Source of the DNA: Dehalococcoidia bacterium
Lineage (GTDB): Bacteria; Chloroflexota; Dehalococcoidia; SM23-28-2; RBG-16-64-32
Length of the DNA: 64,000 bases
Assembly (NCBI GenBank): GCA_040882565.1
Contig: JBBEAZ010000024.1
Location: forward strand, 105,662-169,661
Direction: 5' to 3'
Part shown: positions 13,924 to 29,966 of the stretch, one piece after another
Position numbering within the stretch: the first letter of the stretch is position 1
Layout of the letters: each line of letters starts with the position of its first letter
The notes under the pieces: model-generated
Seen by the model: only the letters and a program-made list of their open reading frames with translations
Database searches by the model: none
Told to the model about the DNA's origin: nothing
Position numbers and translations under genes: made by a program

Positions 13924-16900
13924 GTGCAGTCACGCGTTCAGCATCGCTCCGAGGCTGGCATCGACGAAGCCGCTACCGACAAGGTATTCGCGGCCGAGAC
14001 CGATATCACCTTCGTGCGCCTGGCGGTCATCGCGTTTAGCACCGTCGTTTATGTCTTCCTCTTCGACAAATCCGGTTCCATCCAGTGGCTTGCGTACGGC
14101 ACACTCGCCATCGCCTGGATCTACGGAGTGTCGGTGCTGGCGCTTCAGCCGCATCGGCGCCACCCGGCGCTGTTGTCGAGCTACTTCACATCGACATCCG
14201 ACGCAGCCCTGATCACAGCCTGGATCATCGCCACCGGCGGATACGATTCACCCTTTTACGTTCTGTGGTATGTATCGATCGTCGCAATTGCTTACCGATA
14301 CACCCCAAGGGAGACGATGATCGTCTCGTGTCTGTACGCGGCTTCGTATCTCGCTCTCGTGGCTGCCTTAGGTGAGACCTCTGACCGCACCACCGACTTG
14401 GTCGTTCGCATTGGCTATATCTTCCTCGTCGGTGCGATGAGTTCGTTGCTCTCGCGGGAGGCCCTTGGTCAGTCAAGGGCGAGAGTGGAGGCGCGCCGGG
14501 CGGCAGAGCTTGCGGCCGCCGCAGAAGCGCGGTTTCGCGAGCTCCTCGAATCGGCACCGGACCCGGTCATCATCGTGAACGAGCAGGGGTCTGTGGCTCT
14601 GGTCAACGCGGAGGCGGAGAGGGCCTTCGGCTACTCGAAAGAGGATATCCTGGGCGGCGGCGTGTTGATGCTCATACGCCAAACAGACCACGAGCGGGCG
14701 AGAGCCGAGTGGAGTGCATACACATCTGGGGTGCCAAGGCCGCAGACCATTGGTGGGATAGATCTCGTGGCGAGGCGAAAGGATGGAAGCGAGTTTGTGG
14801 TCGACGTCCGGCTGAGCCCGCTCAAAACCGAAGAGGGGATACTTTTCACGATCGTGATGCGCGACATCAGCGAGCGAAAGCGGGCCGAGGAGGCGCTCCA
14901 CGAAAGCGAGGCTCGCTTCCGTGCCCTCACCGAGAACGCTTCTGACTTTATCTTGATCCTTGACCCCCACGGCGTTCTTCAATACACGAGCCCATCCGTG
15001 GGCAGAATGCTAGGTTATGGCGAAGACGAGTTGTTAGGGAAAAATGGGTTCGAATTCGTACACCCAGATGACGCCTCAGAACTGGCGCAAATCCTCGCGA
15101 TGAGACTCCAGACGCGGGGGATCGGGGAGCCGATCGAATTTCGTGTTCTGCACAGCAACGGAGCCTGGCGCCTGTTCGAGGCGATCGGCAACTTCGACCT
15201 GCTGGACGACCCTGCGGTCGGCGGAATCGTCCTCAACGCCAGGGACATTACGGAGCGCCGACGGGCGGAGGAGGCATTGCGGGACTCCGAGACTCAGTAC
15301 CGTACCTTGGTGGAGGGCGCCAGCGACCACATTTTGATCCTTCAAAATGGGAAGACGGTATATCGAAACCCCGCATATGAAAGGCTGATCGGCTACAGCT
15401 CTACCGAAACAGCTGGCCGCAGCTTCCTGGAGTTCGTCGCCCCCGAGGACCGCGCCATAGTGGAAGAAAAATACCGGAAGCGGCTCCGGGGGGAACCCGC
15501 AACAGAGCAATATGAAGTGCACATCATGACCAGGGATGGCGGCAGGGCGCTTATGGAGGTTAAACCACGGGTCATCCAGTACCACGGTGAGCCAGCCACA
15601 ATGGTGCTGATGCGCGACATCACCGAGCGGAGGCAGGCCGAGGAGACGATCAGACGCCTCGCGCATCATGACGCGCTGACCGGCCTGCCGAACCGCATGC
15701 TCTTCGAGGACCGCCTCAACGTGGCTCTGGCCCAGGCGCGACGCAGCAAGGAGATGCTGGCCGTGCTGTTCCTGGACCTCGACCGTTTCAAGCTAGTGAA
15801 CGACACGATCGGCCACGCCGGAGGAGACGAACTGCTGCGGCAAGTCGCCGCGGACCTCGAAGAGGTAGTGCGCGACGGGGACACGGTAGCACGCAACGGC
15901 GGCGACGAGTTCACGTTGCTGCTTCCACGCATCCACTCCAAGCAAGATGCGATAGAAATCGCAGAGCGCATTCTGCGGGTCCTGGGCGAGCCCAAGTGTC
16001 TGCGTGGCCAGGAATTCACGGTCACGACGAGCATCGGCATCAGCATGTATCCCAAGGACGGCAGGACTGAGCAGGAACTGATGGCGAACGCGGACACCGC
16101 GATGTACCGGGTCAAGGAGCGGGGGCGCAACAACTACCAGCTGTACACGCCAGCGATGAAGGCAGACGTTCTTGGCCGGCTCGCTCTTGAGAGAGACCTT
16201 AGACGTGCTCTGGAGCATGAGGAATTCGTGTTGCATTACCAGCCGATCCTTGACGTGGGGACCGGCGAAATCGTCGCCGCGGAAGCACTCCTCCGCTGGC
16301 GGCACCCGACCCGCGGGCTGGTTTACCCGAACGATTTCATTCCGTTCGCCGAGGAGCACCGGCTCCTGGCCGAAATCGAAGAATGGGTCCTGTCCGAAGC
16401 GTGCAGGCAGAGGCGGCATTGGCGGCAGGAAGGATATCCCGAAGTCCGCATGAGCGTGAACCTATCGGCGCAGCAACTGCAGCGGAAGGAGTTGCCCGCC
16501 CTGGTGTCGCGGATACTGAAGCAATCCGGACTCGCCGGGGTGCACTTGCAGATTGAAATTACGGAAGGTGCGATGCTGGACAATGCCGACCCTGTCATCA
16601 GGACCCTCCGGCACCTGCGAGGGATGGGCGTGCGAATCTCAGTCGACGACTTCGGGACGGGATACTCGTCGCTCAGCTACCTTAAGAGATTTCCGATCGA
16701 CGAGGTGAAGATCGATAGGTCCTTCGTGAGAGACCTGACGGTGGATCCGAAAGACGCCACAATCGTCTCCACTATCATCACGATGGCCCACGACCTCGAA
16801 CTCGACGTCGTTGGCGAGGGGGTCGAATCAGAAGACCAGCTCCGCTTCCTCAAAGATCGCGGCTGTGACGCATGTCAGGGCTATCTGTTCAGTAAACCTG

Positions 16901-17001
16901 TGCCGGCAGCGGAGTTTGAACAGTTGCTCCGCGAGAGCATCGCGACAGTCGTCGGTGCACTCGGGGCAGGGGCCGGACGAAATAGCAGCCGCAACTCATA
17001 A
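13924..17001 (+). CDS. membrane sensor PAS(x4)-GGDEF-EAL c-di-GMP turnover protein
   Basis: 1025 aa. The N-terminus is multi-TM. Four PAS blocks follow. The GGDEF motif is RNGGDEFTLLL. The EAL domain has EALLRWRHP and DDFGTGYSSLSYLKRFPIDEVKID. Confidence 0.9.
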   Translation: MQSRVQHRSEAGIDEAATDKVFAAETDITFVRLAVIAFSTVVYVFLFDKSGSIQWLAYGTLAIAWIYGVSVLALQPHRRHPALLSSYFTSTSDAALITAWIIATGGYDSPFYVLWYVSIVAIAYRYTPRETMIVSCLYAASYLALVAALGETSDRTTDLVVRIGYIFLVGAMSSLLSREALGQSRARVEARRAAELAAAAEARFRELLESAPDPVIIVNEQGSVALVNAEAERAFGYSKEDILGGGVLMLIRQTDHERARAEWSAYTSGVPRPQTIGGIDLVARRKDGSEFVVDVRLSPLKTEEGILFTIVMRDISERKRAEEALHESEARFRALTENASDFILILDPHGVLQYTSPSVGRMLGYGEDELLGKNGFEFVHPDDASELAQILAMRLQTRGIGEPIEFRVLHSNGAWRLFEAIGNFDLLDDPAVGGIVLNARDITERRRAEEALRDSETQYRTLVEGASDHILILQNGKTVYRNPAYERLIGYSSTETAGRSFLEFVAPEDRAIVEEKYRKRLRGEPATEQYEVHIMTRDGGRALMEVKPRVIQYHGEPATMVLMRDITERRQAEETIRRLAHHDALTGLPNRMLFEDRLNVALAQARRSKEMLAVLFLDLDRFKLVNDTIGHAGGDELLRQVAADLEEVVRDGDTVARNGGDEFTLLLPRIHSKQDAIEIAERILRVLGEPKCLRGQEFTVTTSIGISMYPKDGRTEQELMANADTAMYRVKERGRNNYQLYTPAMKADVLGRLALERDLRRALEHEEFVLHYQPILDVGTGEIVAAEALLRWRHPTRGLVYPNDFIPFAEEHRLLAEIEEWVLSEACRQRRHWRQEGYPEVRMSVNLSAQQLQRKELPALVSRILKQSGLAGVHLQIEITEGAMLDNADPVIRTLRHLRGMGVRISVDDFGTGYSSLSYLKRFPIDEVKIDRSFVRDLTVDPKDATIVSTIITMAHDLELDVVGEGVESEDQLRFLKDRGCDACQGYLFSKPVPAAEFEQLLRESIATVVGALGAGAGRNSSRNS

Positions 17002-22259: not shown

Positions 22260-22751
22260 GTGCGTATGACCTCGATATCACACGTCGAGAACGCCCAGGA
22301 GTACGCTCCCCCTCTCCCTTACGCCAGTCTTTCACTACGCATCGTAGCCACGATCCTTGACGGCATCTTTATCCTCTCCCTCGCCGCGCTCGTCAGTGCC
22401 GTCGCCGGATTCTACCTGCTCGCCCGCACGAGCTGGGGCGACGTCGATCCTTCCGACGAGGTCGCCGCGACCTCGGCTGCGATCCTCTGCGGATATCTGG
22501 TGCTCGCTCCTCTTTACTTCATGCTGCTGTGGTACTGGCGCGGCCAGACCCTCGGCCAGATGGCCGTTCGTATCGCCGTCACTGACCGCGACGGTTACCA
22601 TCTCCATTTCTGGCAGGCGATCCTGCGGATGATCCTCTGGCCGCTCAGCGTCCTGCCGCTGGGCATCGGCGTGACGACGATGTTCTTCGACCGCGAGCAC
22701 CGCATGCTACACGACATGCTCTCCGGCACCGTCGTCGTCGAGCTTCCCTGA
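22260..22751 (+). CDS. RDD family membrane protein
   Basis: RIVATILDGIFI .. three TM helices .. RDGYHLHF .. HRMLHDMLSGTVVV, the RDD signature arrangement. Confidence 0.7.
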   Translation: MRMTSISHVENAQEYAPPLPYASLSLRIVATILDGIFILSLAALVSAVAGFYLLARTSWGDVDPSDEVAATSAAILCGYLVLAPLYFMLLWYWRGQTLGQMAVRIAVTDRDGYHLHFWQAILRMILWPLSVLPLGIGVTTMFFDREHRMLHDMLSGTVVVELP

Positions 22752-23570
22752 GTGTCCGCGCTGCGTGCCGTCTCTGTCTGGATCGTCGCTTTTGCCCTGG
22801 CCGTCGCCCTGGCCGCACTCTTCGCCACCCTCACCGTTTACCAGCTGACCTCTGAGGACACCGGGGAGCGCATCCTCCGCCGCTCCATTGCCGCGACCAC
22901 CGACATCGATGCGGCTCTGCCGCGGATCGAGGCCGACCTCGACCGCCTGACGACCGGCGACTCGCCCGAGACGGCCACCGTTCCCAACTTCCCGATCCAG
23001 GCCGAGCTGACGCGCGAAGAGGCGACGACCCTGCGGGGCGGCGAACTGCGCGACGTGATCCTGGATCGCGCCGCGCACAAACTCTACACAGTTGGTGGTG
23101 ACGCCTGGACCGAAGGCGATCCACAGGCGAACCGGAACATCGAACGCGTCTCCACAACCGGCGCGATCGACTACGGTCTCGGCTTCGTCCGTGACTCCAC
23201 GAACGCCGTCTTCCTGGTCCTCGCCGTCATCCTCGCCGTTGTCGCCATCGGCATGACCGCGGTACTGCTGGTCGTTCTTCCCTGGGACATGCGGCTGCTC
23301 GGCGCGGGCAGTGTCGCCGTTGTAGCGGGACTGCCGGGGCTCGCCGCCGCTGTTGCCGTGCGTTTCGTGTTCCGCACCGCCGACGACGAAGGCGACCCCT
23401 TCGTCAAGGCGATGCTGGACCTCGGTGTCGATAGCATGTGGGTGCCCATTCGCAACTTCGCCGTACTCAGCCTCTTCGGTTTTCTGCTGATCATCATCGC
23501 TACCACGCTCCTCTGGTGGGGTGCGCGCCATCGCCCGGCAGGGAGTCCCGCGCTGGATACACAGAGCTAG
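22752..23570 (+). CDS. hypothetical polytopic membrane protein
   Basis: GTG start overlapping the upstream stop. N- and C-terminal TM segments flank a soluble loop. Confidence 0.6.
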   Translation: MSALRAVSVWIVAFALAVALAALFATLTVYQLTSEDTGERILRRSIAATTDIDAALPRIEADLDRLTTGDSPETATVPNFPIQAELTREEATTLRGGELRDVILDRAAHKLYTVGGDAWTEGDPQANRNIERVSTTGAIDYGLGFVRDSTNAVFLVLAVILAVVAIGMTAVLLVVLPWDMRLLGAGSVAVVAGLPGLAAAVAVRFVFRTADDEGDPFVKAMLDLGVDSMWVPIRNFAVLSLFGFLLIIIATTLLWWGARHRPAGSPALDTQS

Positions 23571-23598: not shown

Positions 23599-23964
23599 AT
23601 GACCGGCGACGTGTTCTCGCGCAATCGATTCGTTCGCTCCGTAGCGAGGTTCATCTTGCTCGGCGTGCTGCTTCCTAACTTCGTCTATCTCGGCCACTGG
23701 ACCACGACCGGCACTGAAGCCCATGAGACGACCCACCATCACCGACAACCGGACGCGGCAGCAGACGACGCCCACACGCTCCACTGCCACACCGGCATCT
23801 CGAAGTGTGGCGGCGCGCAGGCGATGGTCGGCGCGCTCTGGGTTGGCGAAGACGCGGGTCTCTTTGCGCCGGATGACGCGCCAAAGCCTATCCTCCTAGC
23901 GCCGGCCGCAATCGCTCCGGAACCACCGACGCTCCTCCTCCTCCAACCTCCTAAGGCTGCCTGA
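23599..23964 (+). CDS. small His-rich membrane protein (HETTHHHRQ ... HTLHCHTGISKCGG), possibly metal-binding
   Basis: An N-terminal TM helix is followed by a His/Cys cluster. It lies upstream of the copper locus. Confidence 0.5.
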   Translation: MTGDVFSRNRFVRSVARFILLGVLLPNFVYLGHWTTTGTEAHETTHHHRQPDAAADDAHTLHCHTGISKCGGAQAMVGALWVGEDAGLFAPDDAPKPILLAPAAIAPEPPTLLLLQPPKAA

Positions 23965-24030: not shown

Positions 24031-24564
24031 ATGAATCCACGAATCCGGCTGCTATTCGCCGGCCTCGCTGCCGTCGCGCTACTCGCCCTCGTCCTGGTCG
24101 CGGCCTGCGACGACGACGACGATGACAGCGGCGGCAGTGACAATAGCGCGGAACTGGCCGAGCTGACAACGCGCCTGGAGCGGGTCGAGGTGGAGACCGC
24201 GCTCAACACGCTTGACGCCGCCGCGTTCCACACCATCGACGACGAACTACAGGCCGCCAGCGAGATCCCGAGCGGCACTTCCGGTACGATCGAACGGGCT
24301 CATGCCATCGCTGCTGCGACCCACTGGCCGGACGACCTCAGCGAGCTGGCCGCGACGCTCGTCCAAACTATGGACGACTTCCTAGCGGCACTCGGAGCGG
24401 AGGACCTCGAGGCGTCAAAGGGTCTGGCGACAGACGCCCACGACGCCTGGCACGAGCTTCAGCATTCCGCGTACGACTGGGTCGCGGGCGAGGAGCTCGC
24501 CGACGAAGGAGAAGACGACCACGGCGCTGAAGAATCGCCCGCAGCCGAGGAAACCGGTAGCTAG
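24031..24564 (+). CDS. acidic lipoprotein, hypothetical
   Basis: It has a signal peptide with a lipobox (LVAAC) and a poly-Asp segment. Confidence 0.6.
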   Translation: MNPRIRLLFAGLAAVALLALVLVAACDDDDDDSGGSDNSAELAELTTRLERVEVETALNTLDAAAFHTIDDELQAASEIPSGTSGTIERAHAIAAATHWPDDLSELAATLVQTMDDFLAALGAEDLEASKGLATDAHDAWHELQHSAYDWVAGEELADEGEDDHGAEESPAAEETGS

Positions 24565-24565
24565 A

Positions 24566-25153
24566 GTGACGTTCGCGGCACGTGTGAGCGGGGTGGCGGC
24601 GCTGGCCGTCGCCCTGCTCGCGGCCGTCCTGGTTTCGGCGTCTGGAGCCTCGGCTCACGCGCGCTACGTCAGCTCGACACCGGCCGACGGCGCGACGGTC
24701 GCCGAGTCTCCGGCTCAGATCGAAGCCGTGTTCGCAGAAGAGATGGGGCGCAGCGGCGGACTGCCGACGATGGTGCTCGTCAACGAGTCCGGCGACGTGA
24801 TCGCCGATGGCCCCGTGCTCAACGACGCAGACCGCACGAAAATGACCCTCGACCTGCCGCCCTCGCTTCCCGAGGGGCGCTACACAGTGATCTGGCACAA
24901 CATCTCGGACGACGACGGGGATGAGGCCCAGGGCGCGTTCGTTTTCTTCGTCGGCGGCGGCTCTTCTCAGACTCCGGGCCCCTCCGACACCGCCGCGGCC
25001 ACGGCCGCGCCAACGACCGTCATTACCAACCCCGGCACGAGTGACGACGGCAGTAACGACATCCCGCTCTGGGCACTGATCGCAGGCGTTGCGGTCGGGC
25101 TCTGTGCCGGCGCCTCGGCAGGCGTCGTCCTCGGAAGCAGGCGCGACACCTGA
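24566..25153 (+). CDS. copC: CopC-family periplasmic copper-binding protein with a C-terminal TM anchor
   Basis: The mature N-terminus is HARYVSSTPADGATV. YTVIWHNISDDDGDEAQG parallels the CopC YxVxWxxxSxDGH motif. Confidence 0.75.
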   Translation: MTFAARVSGVAALAVALLAAVLVSASGASAHARYVSSTPADGATVAESPAQIEAVFAEEMGRSGGLPTMVLVNESGDVIADGPVLNDADRTKMTLDLPPSLPEGRYTVIWHNISDDDGDEAQGAFVFFVGGGSSQTPGPSDTAAATAAPTTVITNPGTSDDGSNDIPLWALIAGVAVGLCAGASAGVVLGSRRDT

Positions 25154-26202
25154 TGCGATTCCGGCGGCTGCTGCTCATGGTCTTCGTGATATGCCTTACC
25201 GCGGGCGTTTGGGCCTGCGGCAGCGGTGACGACGACGGCGGCGAGACGAACGCGCCGACTGGCACAGAGAGCGCGGCTCCCGGAGCGGCGTATATCCTCT
25301 ACCGGGACGCCAGCGGCAACATCATCGCCAGTAATCTCGCCACCGCCGAGACCTTCCGGCAGCCCGTCGACTTCGAATCTGAGGTCGTCATCTCTGCCAT
25401 GTGCTCTCCCGACAGCAAGCGAGTCGCCTTGCTCAAGCAACGTTTCACCGTCACTAACCGCGAACTCGTGATCCTCGGCGAAGACGCACCTGATGAAGAG
25501 ATACCGCTCTCCGCCGCCGTCCAGGGCATGGACTGGTCCCCTGATGGGACCCACCTCGTCTATACCGAATACGATGGCTTCGAAAACATCCACAAGGTGG
25601 GTATCCTCGACATCGCAGCGGGCGAGGCAACCGAGCTTGGTGCCGCAGACAACCTCGCCGGCTCGCCATCCTGGTCTCCCGACGGGTCGACCATCGCCTA
25701 CAACGTGCAGGACGCGATTGGCAACTTCTCGGATGTCTTGTTGCTCGACGCGTCGGGCGGGGAACCGCAGAAGCTCCAGATCGGCTCCGGCGGCCTCTGG
25801 TATGACCCAGAGTGGACTCCCGATGGCGAGTCGCTCCTCGTCTCCGGTATCAGCGAAGGCGAATCCCAGTTGTACCTGGTCAGTGCGGACGGCGGCGAGC
25901 CTGCTGCGATCACCAATTCCGACATCTTCAAACGCTCACCGGAGTACTCCCCGGACGGCGCTCAAATCGCGTACACCGGTTCGATCGTCATTCAGACCGT
26001 GTCCTTGAACGCACTCCACTCCTTTGGCATCTTCCTCATGAACAGCGACGGCAGCGATGAGCGCGCTTTGACCGCCGACCCGCGCCTCAACCCCGGCGCC
26101 GCGGTCGATCCCTACCTCGATGCCTTCCTGCTTGGCTGGTGCCTGCCCGGTCCCTGGCTGGACGATTCCTGGGAGCCGGTCGCGGCGCTGCCCACGCCAT
26201 GA
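25153..26202 (+). CDS. TolB-like beta-propeller lipoprotein (PD40/WD40-like repeats)
   Basis: Repeated WSPDG, EWTPDG and YSPDG blocks. Lipobox near the N-terminus (VWACGSG). Confidence 0.8.
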   Translation: MRFRRLLLMVFVICLTAGVWACGSGDDDGGETNAPTGTESAAPGAAYILYRDASGNIIASNLATAETFRQPVDFESEVVISAMCSPDSKRVALLKQRFTVTNRELVILGEDAPDEEIPLSAAVQGMDWSPDGTHLVYTEYDGFENIHKVGILDIAAGEATELGAADNLAGSPSWSPDGSTIAYNVQDAIGNFSDVLLLDASGGEPQKLQIGSGGLWYDPEWTPDGESLLVSGISEGESQLYLVSADGGEPAAITNSDIFKRSPEYSPDGAQIAYTGSIVIQTVSLNALHSFGIFLMNSDGSDERALTADPRLNPGAAVDPYLDAFLLGWCLPGPWLDDSWEPVAALPTP

Positions 26203-27167
26203 TCCTCCACATCGGCGGCGCGAGCACCGGCACCGTTCTCATTACCGTCATCGGCATCTTCCTCCTCATCTTCGCGATGAGTTTCGCCATCGGGCCGATC
26301 CCCGAAGGCAAGCGCCGTTACAGCCGCGCCTGGTGCACCGCCTGGCTGCGCGCCTCCACACCCAGGCTGATCATCGCCGGGACTTTTTCCGCATTGGTCT
26401 TCACCGGCTCCGCTCTCTCCGGTGACGGCAAGAGCGACGCGCAAATCGCCGCCGACTGCGAATCGGCCGTGACTCCGCTCACCGGTAACGCTGTTACAGA
26501 GCCGCGCCTGCTCGTCGCCATCTCCGGGACGCGTGACATCGCCACCGCTGCCCGGAACGGCGATCCCGGCGGCGCGCAGACGCTCTTCTTCACCACCGAC
26601 GCCCACAACGTCACGCACGACATCGATGCGCAGCTTCGCCTCGGCAGCCCGACGTTGGCCCAAGATCTCTGCATCAGCGTGGTCAAGCTCGAAAACGAGA
26701 TCGCGGGAGACCTTCGGCCAGCCGTGATCGCCACGGAATCCGACAAGATCGCCGGCTACCTGGACCAAGCGAGTGACGAAATCGACTTTGCGGCAGAGCC
26801 CTCGCCGGTGCCGGGAGCCTCTGGCGTCTGCGCCTATCCGATCGGCGCTGTCAGCGACCGTCCGCTCACCGAGGAACGCCTGCGGTCTGCAATCGCGGCG
26901 ATGCGCGAGGTCTCAGCGCTTGCCGGCGCCGGCGACGTGCCAGCCGCTGCCGAGGCCTTTGGCGGCGACGCGCACAACATCACCCATGACATCGACCTGC
27001 CGCTCCGCAACGCCGACCCGCAGCTCGGCGTCGACCTCTGCGAGAGCGTTCTCGAGCTCGAGCTCGAGTTCGGAGGTAAGCGAGACGCGGGCATCATCGC
27101 CGCCGAGGCGACGACTAGCGCCGGCCTCCTCGAGGACTCCGGGCGGGTGCTGGGCCTCCTGCGATGA
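26199..27167 (+). CDS. membrane-anchored protein with two tandem 'DAHNxTHDID' repeat domains, unknown function
   Basis: The start was set at ATG 26199 (MILHIGG.. TM helix). Internal repeats are FFTTDAHNVTHDIDAQLRLGSPTLAQDLCISVVKLENE and FGGDAHNITHDIDLPLRNADPQLGVDLCESVLELELE. Confidence 0.65.
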   Translation: MILHIGGASTGTVLITVIGIFLLIFAMSFAIGPIPEGKRRYSRAWCTAWLRASTPRLIIAGTFSALVFTGSALSGDGKSDAQIAADCESAVTPLTGNAVTEPRLLVAISGTRDIATAARNGDPGGAQTLFFTTDAHNVTHDIDAQLRLGSPTLAQDLCISVVKLENEIAGDLRPAVIATESDKIAGYLDQASDEIDFAAEPSPVPGASGVCAYPIGAVSDRPLTEERLRSAIAAMREVSALAGAGDVPAAAEAFGGDAHNITHDIDLPLRNADPQLGVDLCESVLELELEFGGKRDAGIIAAEATTSAGLLEDSGRVLGLLR

Positions 27168-29467
27168 CGCGGCGCGGGGTACTCCCTCCGCTTGTTCTCG
27201 CCCTCGTGGCGGTAGTGCTTGTGGGCTGGCTGTCGTCCGCCCCGGGCGCTTCCGCGCATGCCATCCTCGTGAGGGCGGACCCGGCGATCAACGGCCAGCT
27301 CCAGTCGTCCCCGGCGATCGTGACCGGGTTCTTCAGCGAAACGGTCGATCAGCGGCTCTCAAACATGGAGGTCTTCGCCGGCACCGGGGAACGCGTCGAC
27401 AACGGCGAGCTGACGTTCGGCCCGGAGCGCGAACGGATGGCCGTCGGCGTCGACGACGAGCTCGGCCCCGGCTTCTACACGGTGGTCTGGGAGACGCTCT
27501 CCGGCGTCGACGGCCACCTGCTGAGGGGCTCTTTTCCCTTCACCATCCTCAACGCCGACGGCTCGCAACCCAGCGGCCCGCGTTTCACCGCCGAAGGCAC
27601 CGGTTCAACCCTCAAGCCGCAGAACGTTAGCGTGAAATGGACCCAGATTCTCTTCTCGACATTACTCGTCGGCAGCCTTGCCTTCGTCGCCCTCGTCGCG
27701 AACCCGGCAGCGTCCGTCTCAAGCGAACCGGCCCGCGCAGAAGCCCGCCTCGCCGCGCGCCGCCGCGCCCTCAACACGGCCTGGATAGCGGTCGGCGGCC
27801 TCGTCCTCGTCGCCGGGGGCGAGCTGTTTGTGCAGGCCGACCAACTGGGCGGCCTCAAGTACATTGACGACGTCCTCAGCAACAACTGGGGTGAGCGATT
27901 CATCCAGCGCCAGGCCGTGCTGGTTTGTATCGCCTCTGTGCTTGTGATGGTGCCCGCCTTTGCTCGCGGTAATCGCGAACGCCTCGCCGATTCCGCGACC
28001 TGGGTCGCCCTCGCCGGTGGCCTCGGTTACCTCCTGCTCATCGCGATGGTCGGCCACGCCAACGCTGTGCCCGGCTCCTTCTGGGCAGTTGCCGCCGACT
28101 TCCTCCACCTCGTGGCCACTGCCGTCTGGGTCGGCATGCTTGTCCAGCTCGGCCTCTTCCTCCTGTGGGTGCGACAGGAGCCGGACGCACGCTCCGACCT
28201 CCAGACCGCTCACCTCGAACGCTTCTCGCTGATCGCCGCCACGAGCGTCGTCGTTCTCCTCGCGACCGGCACCATTAACGCACTCGTCCAGGTACCGAGC
28301 TTCAACGCCCTGGTCGACACGGCATACGGGCGGGCGCTGCTCATCAAGCTCGGCGTCGTCACTACCGTTCTTGGCGTGGCCGGCGTCAACGCGTTCTATT
28401 TGCGCGAACGCACGATCGAGGAAGCCGAAGCTCCGGAGACTGGTTCAAGAGTCCGTCATTGGCTTCGGCGCGCCGTGTGGGCGGAGGCGGCTTTGGGCAT
28501 CGCAGTCATGCTCGCCGCCGCCATTCTCTTTCAGTACCCGACGTCGCGCCAGGCGGAGGACGCCGAACGGGCGGCCGAGGAGGCCTCGCGCACACAGGCG
28601 GTGGTGGGCTATGACGAGATTCAGCCCGCGGGTGACCTCACCGTCAACCTCACGATCTCTCCCAACGCGATCGGCAACAACTCCTTCCGAGTGTTCCTCT
28701 TCCCGCAGCAGGGTGGGGACATTGGCGACATCCTCCGCGTGCGCCTCCGCTTCGTGCCGCCGTCCGGGGACGCTGCCCCGTCGGAGATCGACATGGAGCC
28801 CGCCGAACTGACTGCGTACCGCGCGGTCGGCCCCTTCATCAGCGAGCCCGGCAGCTGGGTCGTCCACGTCGACATCCGCCGCAGCGGCGCCGACGACATC
28901 ACGGCCGATTTCCCTGTGGCGATTGACTCCCCGGGCGGCGGTGGTCAGTTCGATCTGCCTCTCGCCTCAGGAGGCTGGCTCACGGTCGGCGCCATTGGTC
29001 TGCTGGTCGCCGCGTTGCTCCTCGCTGCCTGGTCGCCACGGCTGCCGGAGCTTCCGGCGCCCGGCCCCCGGCTAATGCGGGTTGGCACCGCGGCGTTCAC
29101 GGTGATCGGCACCGGAGTGATCGCGATCAGCCTGCTGCCGGGGGAAGCCGAGACGATCGGCAACCCGATCGCCGCCGATCCACAGTCGATTGCGATGGGT
29201 CGCTCGTTATACACGGCGAACTGCCAGCAGTGCCACGGCCCGGACGGGCGCGGCGACGGGCCGGTGGCGCGTGACCTGGAGACGCCGCCCGCCGACTTCC
29301 GCATCCATCTCCCCTACCATAAGGACGAGTTCTTCTTCCACGTCATCAGCAACGGTCTGACCGTGATGCCCTCCTTCGGCGACCGGCTCACCGAGGATGA
29401 GATCTGGCACCTGATAAACTTCCTGCAATCGGAGTTTGGGATTGACGCTCAAGAGCCCGGCAGCTAG
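27164..29467 (+). CDS. copCD: CopC-CopD fusion with a C-terminal cytochrome c domain
   Basis: The N-terminus is CopC-like (HAILVRADPA ... YTVVWETLSGVDGH). A multi-TM CopD-like core follows. The C-terminus has CQQCHG (CxxCH) and a downstream Met, typical of a mono-haem cytochrome c domain. Confidence 0.85.
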   Translation: MTRRGVLPPLVLALVAVVLVGWLSSAPGASAHAILVRADPAINGQLQSSPAIVTGFFSETVDQRLSNMEVFAGTGERVDNGELTFGPERERMAVGVDDELGPGFYTVVWETLSGVDGHLLRGSFPFTILNADGSQPSGPRFTAEGTGSTLKPQNVSVKWTQILFSTLLVGSLAFVALVANPAASVSSEPARAEARLAARRRALNTAWIAVGGLVLVAGGELFVQADQLGGLKYIDDVLSNNWGERFIQRQAVLVCIASVLVMVPAFARGNRERLADSATWVALAGGLGYLLLIAMVGHANAVPGSFWAVAADFLHLVATAVWVGMLVQLGLFLLWVRQEPDARSDLQTAHLERFSLIAATSVVVLLATGTINALVQVPSFNALVDTAYGRALLIKLGVVTTVLGVAGVNAFYLRERTIEEAEAPETGSRVRHWLRRAVWAEAALGIAVMLAAAILFQYPTSRQAEDAERAAEEASRTQAVVGYDEIQPAGDLTVNLTISPNAIGNNSFRVFLFPQQGGDIGDILRVRLRFVPPSGDAAPSEIDMEPAELTAYRAVGPFISEPGSWVVHVDIRRSGADDITADFPVAIDSPGGGGQFDLPLASGGWLTVGAIGLLVAALLLAAWSPRLPELPAPGPRLMRVGTAAFTVIGTGVIAISLLPGEAETIGNPIAADPQSIAMGRSLYTANCQQCHGPDGRGDGPVARDLETPPADFRIHLPYHKDEFFFHVISNGLTVMPSFGDRLTEDEIWHLINFLQSEFGIDAQEPGS

Positions 29468-29966
29468 CACCTTTTTCTCCCGCCGCCGGCGTGCGCAGGC
29501 GGCGCGCCAGGACGCCCTTCCGGACTGGGTCTGGGGCGCCGGCCTGGGCGTTCTCGTCCTGATCTTCGTCGGCGCTTTCTTCTTGGTTCGCCAGGTCAGC
29601 GGCGGTGGTGGTGACGATACCTGCGACAAGGCGCTCGTTCCCCTCGGCCAGAGCGAGATCAGTGCCGACGCGTTCGTCACTGAGGAAGCAGCGCTTACCC
29701 GCGTCATCGACTTCCTGAACGGAGGCGATCGCCAGGCGGCGGAGGCCGCTTTCTTCGGCCCCGCTCACAACTTCACCCACAATGTCGACCCGGAAGTCCG
29801 TGAGAAGGACGAGAGCCTCGCCAGAGACCTCTGCCACGCCGTCGTTACCCTCGAGGACGACCTCGCGACCAACGGTTCGAACCAGGCAATCGCCGCAGAG
29901 GTGGACCGAGTGCGCCTACTGTTGCGTGACATCGCGGAGACCCTCGGCTACCCTCGACCCGGATAG
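29436..29966 (+). CDS. membrane-anchored protein with one 'AHNxTH' domain (paralog of the 26199-27167 repeats)
   Basis: A TM helix is followed by FFGPAHNFTHNVDPEVREKDESLARDLCHAVVTLEDD. The start codon is uncertain because the gene overlaps the copCD 3' end. Confidence 0.55.
   Translation: MGLTLKSPAASTFFSRRRRAQAARQDALPDWVWGAGLGVLVLIFVGAFFLVRQVSGGGGDDTCDKALVPLGQSEISADAFVTEEAALTRVIDFLNGGDRQAAEAAFFGPAHNFTHNVDPEVREKDESLARDLCHAVVTLEDDLATNGSNQAIAAEVDRVRLLLRDIAETLGYPRPG

Follow-up and report, generated by a model that had tools for sequence, protein, structure and literature searches.

Introduction

Copper import by bacteria is poorly understood, and CopC/CopD systems are the main candidates for this function. 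Each lineage in which these systems have been studied possesses a different, poorly characterized third component (YcnI, YebY), and YcnI belongs to the DUF1775 family, whose beta-sandwich fold carries a histidine brace at its N-terminus. Here, we describe a 64,000-nucleotide (nt) stretch of a Dehalococcoidia genome (contig JBBEAZ010000024.1; hereafter, the window) in which two genes, designated A and B, encode three copies of an unannotated domain on either side of a gene for a CopC-CopD-cytochrome c fusion protein. This domain is most likely a new accessory for the handling of metal (copper) at the membrane's outer face, a role for which we infer metal binding.

In Bacillus subtilis, YcnI (encoded by ycnKJI) is a membrane-anchored, extracytoplasmic protein whose gene lies beside that of the CopC-CopD fusion importer YcnJ, and it exchanges Cu(II) with the CopC domain of YcnJ (PMC12362106). 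YebY (DUF2511), encoded in the yobA-yebZ-yebY operon of Escherichia coli, is likewise a third, uncharacterized periplasmic component of a CopC/CopD operon and has a strictly conserved, disulfide-forming Cys pair; its family occurs in cop operons (about 52%) as well as in unrelated contexts (PMC8689200), a distribution similar to that of the family described below. The window's proteins A and B share with YcnI the same operon logic and proposed role, but no relationship in sequence or fold: the new domain is an all-alpha four-helix bundle with an internal HxxxH...E signature, and three copies of it (four in one related cluster, L011) are encoded per cluster. Assignment to DUF1775 is contradicted by the lack of a Pfam match, by the all-alpha prediction, and by the position of the domain after transmembrane (TM) segments, which leaves no free N-terminal His. 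The importers differ as well, given that a cytochrome c domain is present here where YcnJ has a YtkA domain after CopD (PMC13344008). YebY, for its part, belongs to another family and fold, has low copper affinity, and lacks the HxxxH...E signature (PMC8689200). The A and B proteins fit a known functional class, namely the lineage-specific accessory proteins of CopC/CopD operons, and are not categorically new; the novelty lies in a domain family that lacks annotation, within a functional niche already familiar.

A Repeated Four-Helix-Bundle Domain

In a six-frame translation of the window, the pattern AHNxTH[DN][IV]D matches exactly three times (nt 26601-26627, 26970-26996, and 29763-29789) and is absent from 200 shuffles of the same DNA, which bears out an earlier, preliminary description of three motif copies spread over two genes that flank copCD. 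That description had taken the repeated module to be 35-40 amino acids (aa) long; according to BLASTP, however, the two halves of protein A are 40% identical over 104 residues (E 2e-21) and protein B matches them at E 7e-15 and 9e-14, and because this similarity reaches far past the motif, the repeat unit is a domain of about 115 aa. Each of the three copies contains two Cys residues (C87/C158 and C211/C281 in A, C63/C133 in B), the first near the domain N-terminus within C-x3-P-L and the second within "DLC". In protein B, the key residues are Cys63, His111, His115, Cys133, and Glu140, and the domain ends in a conserved LGYPRPG.

The two proteins are tethered differently. An N-terminal TM anchor had been proposed for each, and this holds for B, in which an Arg-rich cytoplasmic tail (RRRR) precedes one TM segment (residues about 31-52), whereas A begins with a short external tail bearing a near-invariant His4, followed by a two-TM membrane hairpin (residues about 10-31 and 57-75) whose helices are joined by a KR-rich loop. 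All three domains are predicted to face out of the cytoplasm, as judged from hydropathy and the positive-inside rule, the TM helices of the AlphaFold2 (AF2) models, the lipoprotein signals of relatives, and the covarying Cys pair. The CopC and cytochrome c domains reside in the same compartment as the A and B domains.

Using a 47-sequence domain alignment, AF2 folds the B domain as an up-down four-helix bundle (predicted local distance difference test, pLDDT, 96.8; predicted template modeling score, pTM, 0.89) with helices at positions 19-37, 41-66, 68-86, and 91-111 in domain numbering, and full-length A as the TM hairpin plus two such bundles (mean pLDDT 87.7). His53 and His57 occupy successive turns (i/i+4) of helix 2, in a segment bracketed on both sides by Gly/Pro, while Cys75 and Glu82 lie on helix 3; the corresponding signatures are F-x4-H-x3-H-[DN]-x-D-x-P-L-R and L-C-x6-E. 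Counting from the turn between helices 2 and 3 of the model, Glu82 would be level with His53, and Cys75 with Asp60.

No solved chain resembles the domain in sequence or in specific fold: a profile search of PDB sequences returned no match, and the best Foldseek E-value was 0.11, the nearest structural neighbors being protein-protein interaction bundles (PsbQ, FAT domain, talin, and catenin). In imelysin-like/EfeO proteins, a conserved GxHxxE metal motif accompanies two helical-bundle lobes packed together. The domain has no match to Pfam PF09375 (Peptidase_M75), its identity to imelysin-like/EfeO and PsbQ/CyanoQ proteins is 7-13% with Foldseek E-values of at least 0.1, and the two domains of A cannot be superposed together on the two bundles of the imelysin architecture, the alignable part being limited to about 110-125 residues; the likeness to both groups is that of a generic four-helix bundle. 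SmbP (3u8v), CopM/DUF305, and Csp1 are helical periplasmic copper binders. Pfam and PDB profile searches revealed no sequence similarity to them, and the ligands differ: SmbP has numerous His in repeats, CopM uses Met/His, and the core of the Csps is lined with Cys (PMC5171941).

Family Size and Conservation

Protein A is 100% identical to the protein WD904_04300 of a Dehalococcoidia metagenome-assembled genome (MAG), annotated at NCBI as "hypothetical". The preliminary description did not recognize the family, and neither do the curated libraries: A and B match zero families in Pfam, NCBIfam, and PADLOC, even at E<=1, and no recurrent family emerged when 47 and 29 diverse members and 10 distant members were scanned singly. 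Literature searches likewise found no description of this domain family. Word-indexed searches recovered 56 A-type and 74 B-type proteins, all of them unnamed or "hypothetical" and without a Pfam domain; A has 48 full-length homologues at 43-65% identity. The family is small, since an exhaustive search of 1.84 billion cluster representatives with a hidden Markov model of the domain yielded 207 matches at E<=1e-3. It includes single-domain forms anchored by a TM segment or as lipoproteins, many relatives having lipoprotein signal sequences, as well as a member annotated from a Thermaerobacter (Bacillota) MAG. A metagenome scan with subgroup A9 found no relatives. For the subgroup of low guanine-plus-cytosine (GC) content, the motif [VA]H[DAP]FFH[DEA][IVA][DN] retrieved no genuine relative from species-representative genomes; its sole GTDB match (L010 8001-8162, from an Azoarcus MAG) is spurious, being antisense to an open reading frame (ORF) for a 991-aa histidine kinase.

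The motif is kept in homologues. All 130 A-type and B-type proteins share a Cys/His/His/Cys/Glu set without exception, and a broader census of 325 domain instances ranks His57 and Glu82 (98% each) and His53 (97%) above Leu74 (91%), Phe48 (90%), Arg64 (85%), and Asp60 (84%). Asn54 is conserved in only 61% of these domains, its conservation being confined to the Dehalococcoidia subfamily. Of the originally proposed conserved set, the two His stand family-wide and the Asn and Cys do not; the window's domains each have two Cys rather than one. By this pattern, the domain is real and under selection, and the alignment identifies His-x3-His...Glu as the probable functional core of the family.

The Cys pair behaves differently: both residues are present in 249 of the 325 domains and both absent in 44. 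Where they are absent, the N-terminal segment bearing Cys5 is lost and Trp, Tyr, Phe, or Leu occurs instead of Cys75. Truncated fragments account for most of the mismatches, and the second Cys of four sequences has moved to position 64. A Cys-less branch consists of lipoproteins of about 130 aa that are clearly homologous (hhalign 99.9%, E 8.6e-31). Because the two Cys appear and vanish together and a bulky hydrophobic residue takes the place of Cys75, the pair is best read as a structural disulfide clamp and not as a set of universal ligands.

Genomic Context Across Lineages

The gene order CopC-propeller-A-CopC/CopD/cytochrome c-B recurs in several related loci (L001, L004/5, L011, L012, and L013), whose A proteins are 44-57% identical to that of the window. 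Variations on this order include an additional B-like gene, which brings the cluster to four domain copies (L011), the replacement of two-domain A by single-domain forms (L012 and L013), and the retention of A, B, and CopC with the CopCD-cytochrome c gene missing (L003 and L028). The clusters are seen in nine longer contexts besides metagenome loci. Among 24 metagenome loci recovered with an A-type alignment profile, CopC and/or CopD is present in 19, two are too short to judge, and three have only an RDD-family gene, a gene for a 272-aa membrane protein (mem272), and a single-domain lipoprotein gene. The A and B genes are accordingly placed within CopC/CopD operons by overlapping reading frames, conserved synteny, and these 19 loci. 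Of all the support for a functional connection with the copper system, the most independent comes from the Cys-less lipoproteins P0278 and P0282, whose genes directly follow CopC and CopC/CopD/cytochrome c in a different neighborhood, with hydrolases upstream in both cases and MutS2 downstream in L008.

Outside this setting, the domain keeps other company. In three Chloroflexota-type loci (L038 193-675, L040, and L041), the single-domain lipoprotein gene directly follows RDD-mem272, with no CopC/CopD in the available sequence, and the RDD/mem272 pair may be a partner of the domain in its own right. In Bacillota, the gene for the family member comes last in FtsE-FtsX-X-Y-domain operons of two genomes that differ greatly (GC 70% and 37%), a TM-anchored subgroup adjoins DUF951, and one low-GC member lacks informative neighbors. 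The linkage to copC/copD that the preliminary description proposed to check is thus tight in Chloroflexota but does not extend to the distant members, and because those members (Bacillota and others) are not beside recognizable copper genes, the copper link is subfamily-specific, and any specificity for copper would belong to a subfamily at most.

The conserved Bacillota operons (L014 3284-7405, L015, and L017 926-4846) encode an FtsE-like ATP-binding cassette (ABC) ATPase, FtsX, protein X, protein Y, and the four-helix lipoprotein. Protein X (318-352 aa) is coiled-coil-like and protein Y (314-336 aa) has a C-terminal TM segment; neither has a Pfam match, and L017_314 matches L014_336 at E 4e-42. 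In both genomes, the signal peptides of X and Y end in A-x-A|H, cleavage at which would leave a mature N-terminal His.

Organization of the Cluster and Neighboring Proteins

Between 22.2 and 30 kb, the forward strand of the window is densely packed with mostly overlapping ORFs of high third-position GC (0.79-0.83 where tabulated); their features are listed in Table 1. Start/stop overlaps of 4 nt join gene A to each of its neighbors, including the propeller gene directly upstream, and overlaps of 1-32 nt run along lipo177-CopC-propeller-A-CopCD-B; because these reading frames overlap, the arrangement indicates that the genes from lipo177 to B are co-translated and translationally coupled.

Table 1. 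Features of the gene cluster that encodes proteins A and B (window coordinates).
Feature	Position (nt)	Strand	Evidence or remarks
RDD-family membrane protein	22260-22751	+	Pfam RDD 6.7e-22; synteny with relatives
272-aa membrane protein (mem272)	22752-23570	+	With the RDD gene, forms head of cluster; synteny with relatives
121-aa His/Cys-rich membrane protein	23599-23964	+	No Pfam match; kept in cluster; orthologues in L008, L009, L011, L013, and metagenome loci
177-aa His-containing lipoprotein (lipo177)	24031-24564	+	Cluster member
Stand-alone CopC, 195 aa, C-terminal TM anchor	24566-25153	+	Pfam CopC 2.2e-16; synteny kept in every Chloroflexota locus
PD40/TolB-like beta-propeller lipoprotein, 349 aa	25153-26202	+	Pfam PD40 7.8e-11; NCBIfam TolB 3.8e-27 (below curated cutoff); syntenic
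Gene A, 322 aa	26199-27167	+	ORF; two tandem four-helix-bundle domains
Gene A domain 1, residues 83-200	26445-26798	+	Cys87...DAH136-N-V-T-H140-D-I-D...L-C158...E165
Gene A domain 2, residues 207-322	26817-27164	+	Cys211...DAH259-N-I-T-H263-D-I-D...L-C281...E288
CopC-CopD-cytochrome c fusion, 767 aa	27164-29467	+	Pfam CopC 1.1e-12, CopD 8.6e-21, Cytochrome_CBB3 3.6e-14; NCBIfam copper_CopD 3.1e-29
Gene B, 176 aa (NCBI call: 174 aa)	29436-29966	+	ORF; one four-helix-bundle domain, residues 59-176

The fusion protein is organized as CopC, CopD, a region of about 130 aa without a family match, extra TM segments, and a c-type cytochrome (CxxCH), and is a putative copper importer. Its CopC domain appears to fit the histidine brace, with a predicted mature N-terminus at "ASA|HAIL" and the motif "VDGH". 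In the stand-alone CopC, the mature N-terminal His is retained (ASA|HARY), whereas the canonical "VDGH" of the fused domain gives way to "DDDGDE"; the copper sites of the two CopC domains may therefore differ. The attachment of a cytochrome to a putative importer suggests that Cu(II) reduction could be coupled to, and precede, import.

Two further small proteins of the cluster are rich in candidate ligands. The 121-aa membrane protein contains the motifs "HETTHHH", "HCHTGISKCGG", and "HTLHCHTGISKCGG"; its orthologues in several related clusters (L011 554-934 and L013 1452-1784) contain "LPNVT[YF]xGHW" and "HCH..G...C", with His-rich versions at L008 3040-3519 and L009 1328-1789, and it is probably a further unannotated metal-handling component. 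The lipo177 family, always encoded just upstream of CopC, has invariant H67, W99-P100, and H137/H141/H145 ("AHDxWHELxH"), and the orthologue in L001 (5439-6368) carries an extra C-terminal domain with "GEGHAHIYVDG". On account of its "DAHDAWHELQH", lipo177 was considered as a fourth copy of the domain and not accepted: its hhalign probability of 94.7% stemmed from the signal peptide and lipobox, and once the leaders were cut away the alignment shrank to 37 columns at 62% probability.

Elsewhere in the window, a large PAS-PAS-GGDEF-EAL signaling protein is encoded at 13924-17001 (forward strand), and the other neighbors checked comprise an AI-2E family transporter and metabolic enzymes (luciferase-like monooxygenases, TauD, FMO-like, thiolase, and glyoxalase). 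No genes for cytochrome oxidase, Sco, or CopA/CopZ were found among the window ORFs checked. Rfam detected no RNA family in the window, and neither Rfam nor promoter and terminator scans were informative on operon boundaries.

Function of the Domain

We tentatively favor, at somewhat less than an even chance, a His/His/Glu metal site outside the cytoplasm, serving CopC/CopD as a buffer or relay for copper. The site is suggested by the i/i+4 His pair together with the invariant Glu on the next helix. According to this proposal, A and B would be outward-facing, membrane-tethered proteins in which His/His/Glu, possibly with a conserved Asp of the "GD" loop between helices 1 and 2, form a mononuclear metal site, and the three domains would capture, buffer, or pass copper to the histidine-brace CopC domains of CopC and CopC-CopD-cytochrome c. 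The fused cytochrome c could next reduce Cu(II) so that it can pass through CopD, and the Cys pair would serve as a disulfide pinning the N-terminal extension onto helix 3 rather than as metal ligands. Cu(II) is favored because the ligands are of the N/O type and the CopC partners carry histidine braces. What the analysis shows is the domain, with its predicted fold and topology and its conservation, together with operon structure and synteny; ligand geometry, metal identity, and direction of transfer are all inferred. The presence of other small His-rich proteins in the same cluster counts in favor of this role, as does, by analogy, the precedent of CopC/CopD operons that carry lineage-specific outer-face third components such as YcnI and YebY.

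Our confidence goes no further because the family is not exclusively copper-linked. Several observations weigh on the other side. The His/His/Glu geometry is deduced from helix positions alone; the Bacillota members in FtsE-FtsX operons, the TM-anchored subgroup by DUF951, and the low-GC member stand apart from copper genes, as do the three Chloroflexota-type loci in which only RDD-mem272 accompanies the domain; one lineage has A and B without CopCD-cytochrome c (L003 and L028); and the syntenic loci come mostly from related Dehalococcoidia and hence are not independent. In addition, YebY, the closest operon analogue, binds copper weakly (PMC8689200).

This last observation also fits the best-surviving alternative, given that YebY occupies the same operon position in E. 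coli (PMC8689200). The domain might be a non-metal scaffold or adaptor, a helical bundle that docks on membrane complexes (CopCD-cytochrome c or the propeller; RDD-mem272; FtsEX in Bacillota) and whose His/Asp/Arg/Glu residues form a structural network of hydrogen bonds and salt bridges or a protein-binding surface. Such a role, which we regard as rather unlikely yet deserving of serious consideration, would account for the occurrence of the family in several unrelated membrane-complex contexts, is in keeping with interaction bundles (PsbQ, FAT domain, talin, and catenin) as the best structural neighbors, and would explain the D60-x3-R64 spacing, which suits an intrahelical salt bridge. It sits less easily with the 97-98% conservation of an i/i+4 His pair and a Glu in subfamilies that are <30% identical, which is unusual for a purely structural role, with the placement of the motif in a short Gly/Pro-bracketed helix, which is typical of a functional site, and with operons enriched in His-rich and histidine-brace CopC proteins.

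The domain could instead bind another metal or cofactor, whether Zn(II), Fe(II), or Ni(II) at His/His/Glu or a heme that two domains or protomers hold between them, and either take part with the fused cytochrome c in redox or electron transfer or buffer metals in general. We consider this improbable. CopC and CopD are the only recurrent metal-specific neighbors, a single heme cannot be ligated by both of two His that share one helix face, and no Pfam or PDB sequence relationship connects the domain with M75, hemerythrin, or cytochrome b562. The hemerythrin ligand set (H...HxxxE...HxxxH...HxxxxD) comprises five His and two carboxylates; the domain has too few His for such a di-iron site and is not hemerythrin-like.

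A Cys-centered function, in which the pair of the Dehalococcoidia subfamily would be a Cu(I)-binding or redox-active dithiol acting, as in Sco or reduced YebY, on Cu(I) or on partner cysteines, draws on the invariance of both Cys in the 130 A-type and B-type proteins, on model positions that put Cys75 about one helical turn from His57, and on the binding of Cu+ and Cu2+ by reduced YebY via its Cys pair (PMC8689200), but is very unlikely, given that the 44 domains without the pair still keep His/His/Glu, that the all-or-none pattern and bulky hydrophobic substitute fit a buried structural disulfide, that the second Cys can shift to position 64, and that two Cys-less members (P0278 and P0282) occur in CopCD operons.

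Implications

The copper-handling proposal is directly testable, since the candidate ligand set is clean (two His and one Glu), the domain is small and soluble, its fold prediction is highly confident, and natural variants with and without the Cys pair are available. The family is small and taxonomically narrow, and its impact is therefore specialist rather than broad. If the domain binds copper, a Pfam entry would be merited, and annotation would improve for some hundreds of proteins now called "hypothetical" in metagenomes of Chloroflexota and Bacillota. The CopC-CopD-cytochrome c fusion, for its part, hints at coupled Cu(II) reduction and import in aerobic Dehalococcoidia. A more far-reaching interpretation, which we hold to be doubtful, is that F-x4-H-x3-H...E defines a new extracytoplasmic metal-binding fold family, which in Chloroflexota would form a multi-copy, membrane-tethered relay or store that supplies copper to a CopC-CopD-cytochrome c importer with a Cu(II)-reducing cytochrome, and which in Bacillota would have been recruited to FtsEX-type ABC systems, both of whose partner proteins likewise begin, by prediction, with a mature His. 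Were that interpretation true, the domain would represent a class of modules, not yet described, by which monoderm bacteria handle copper on their outer face.

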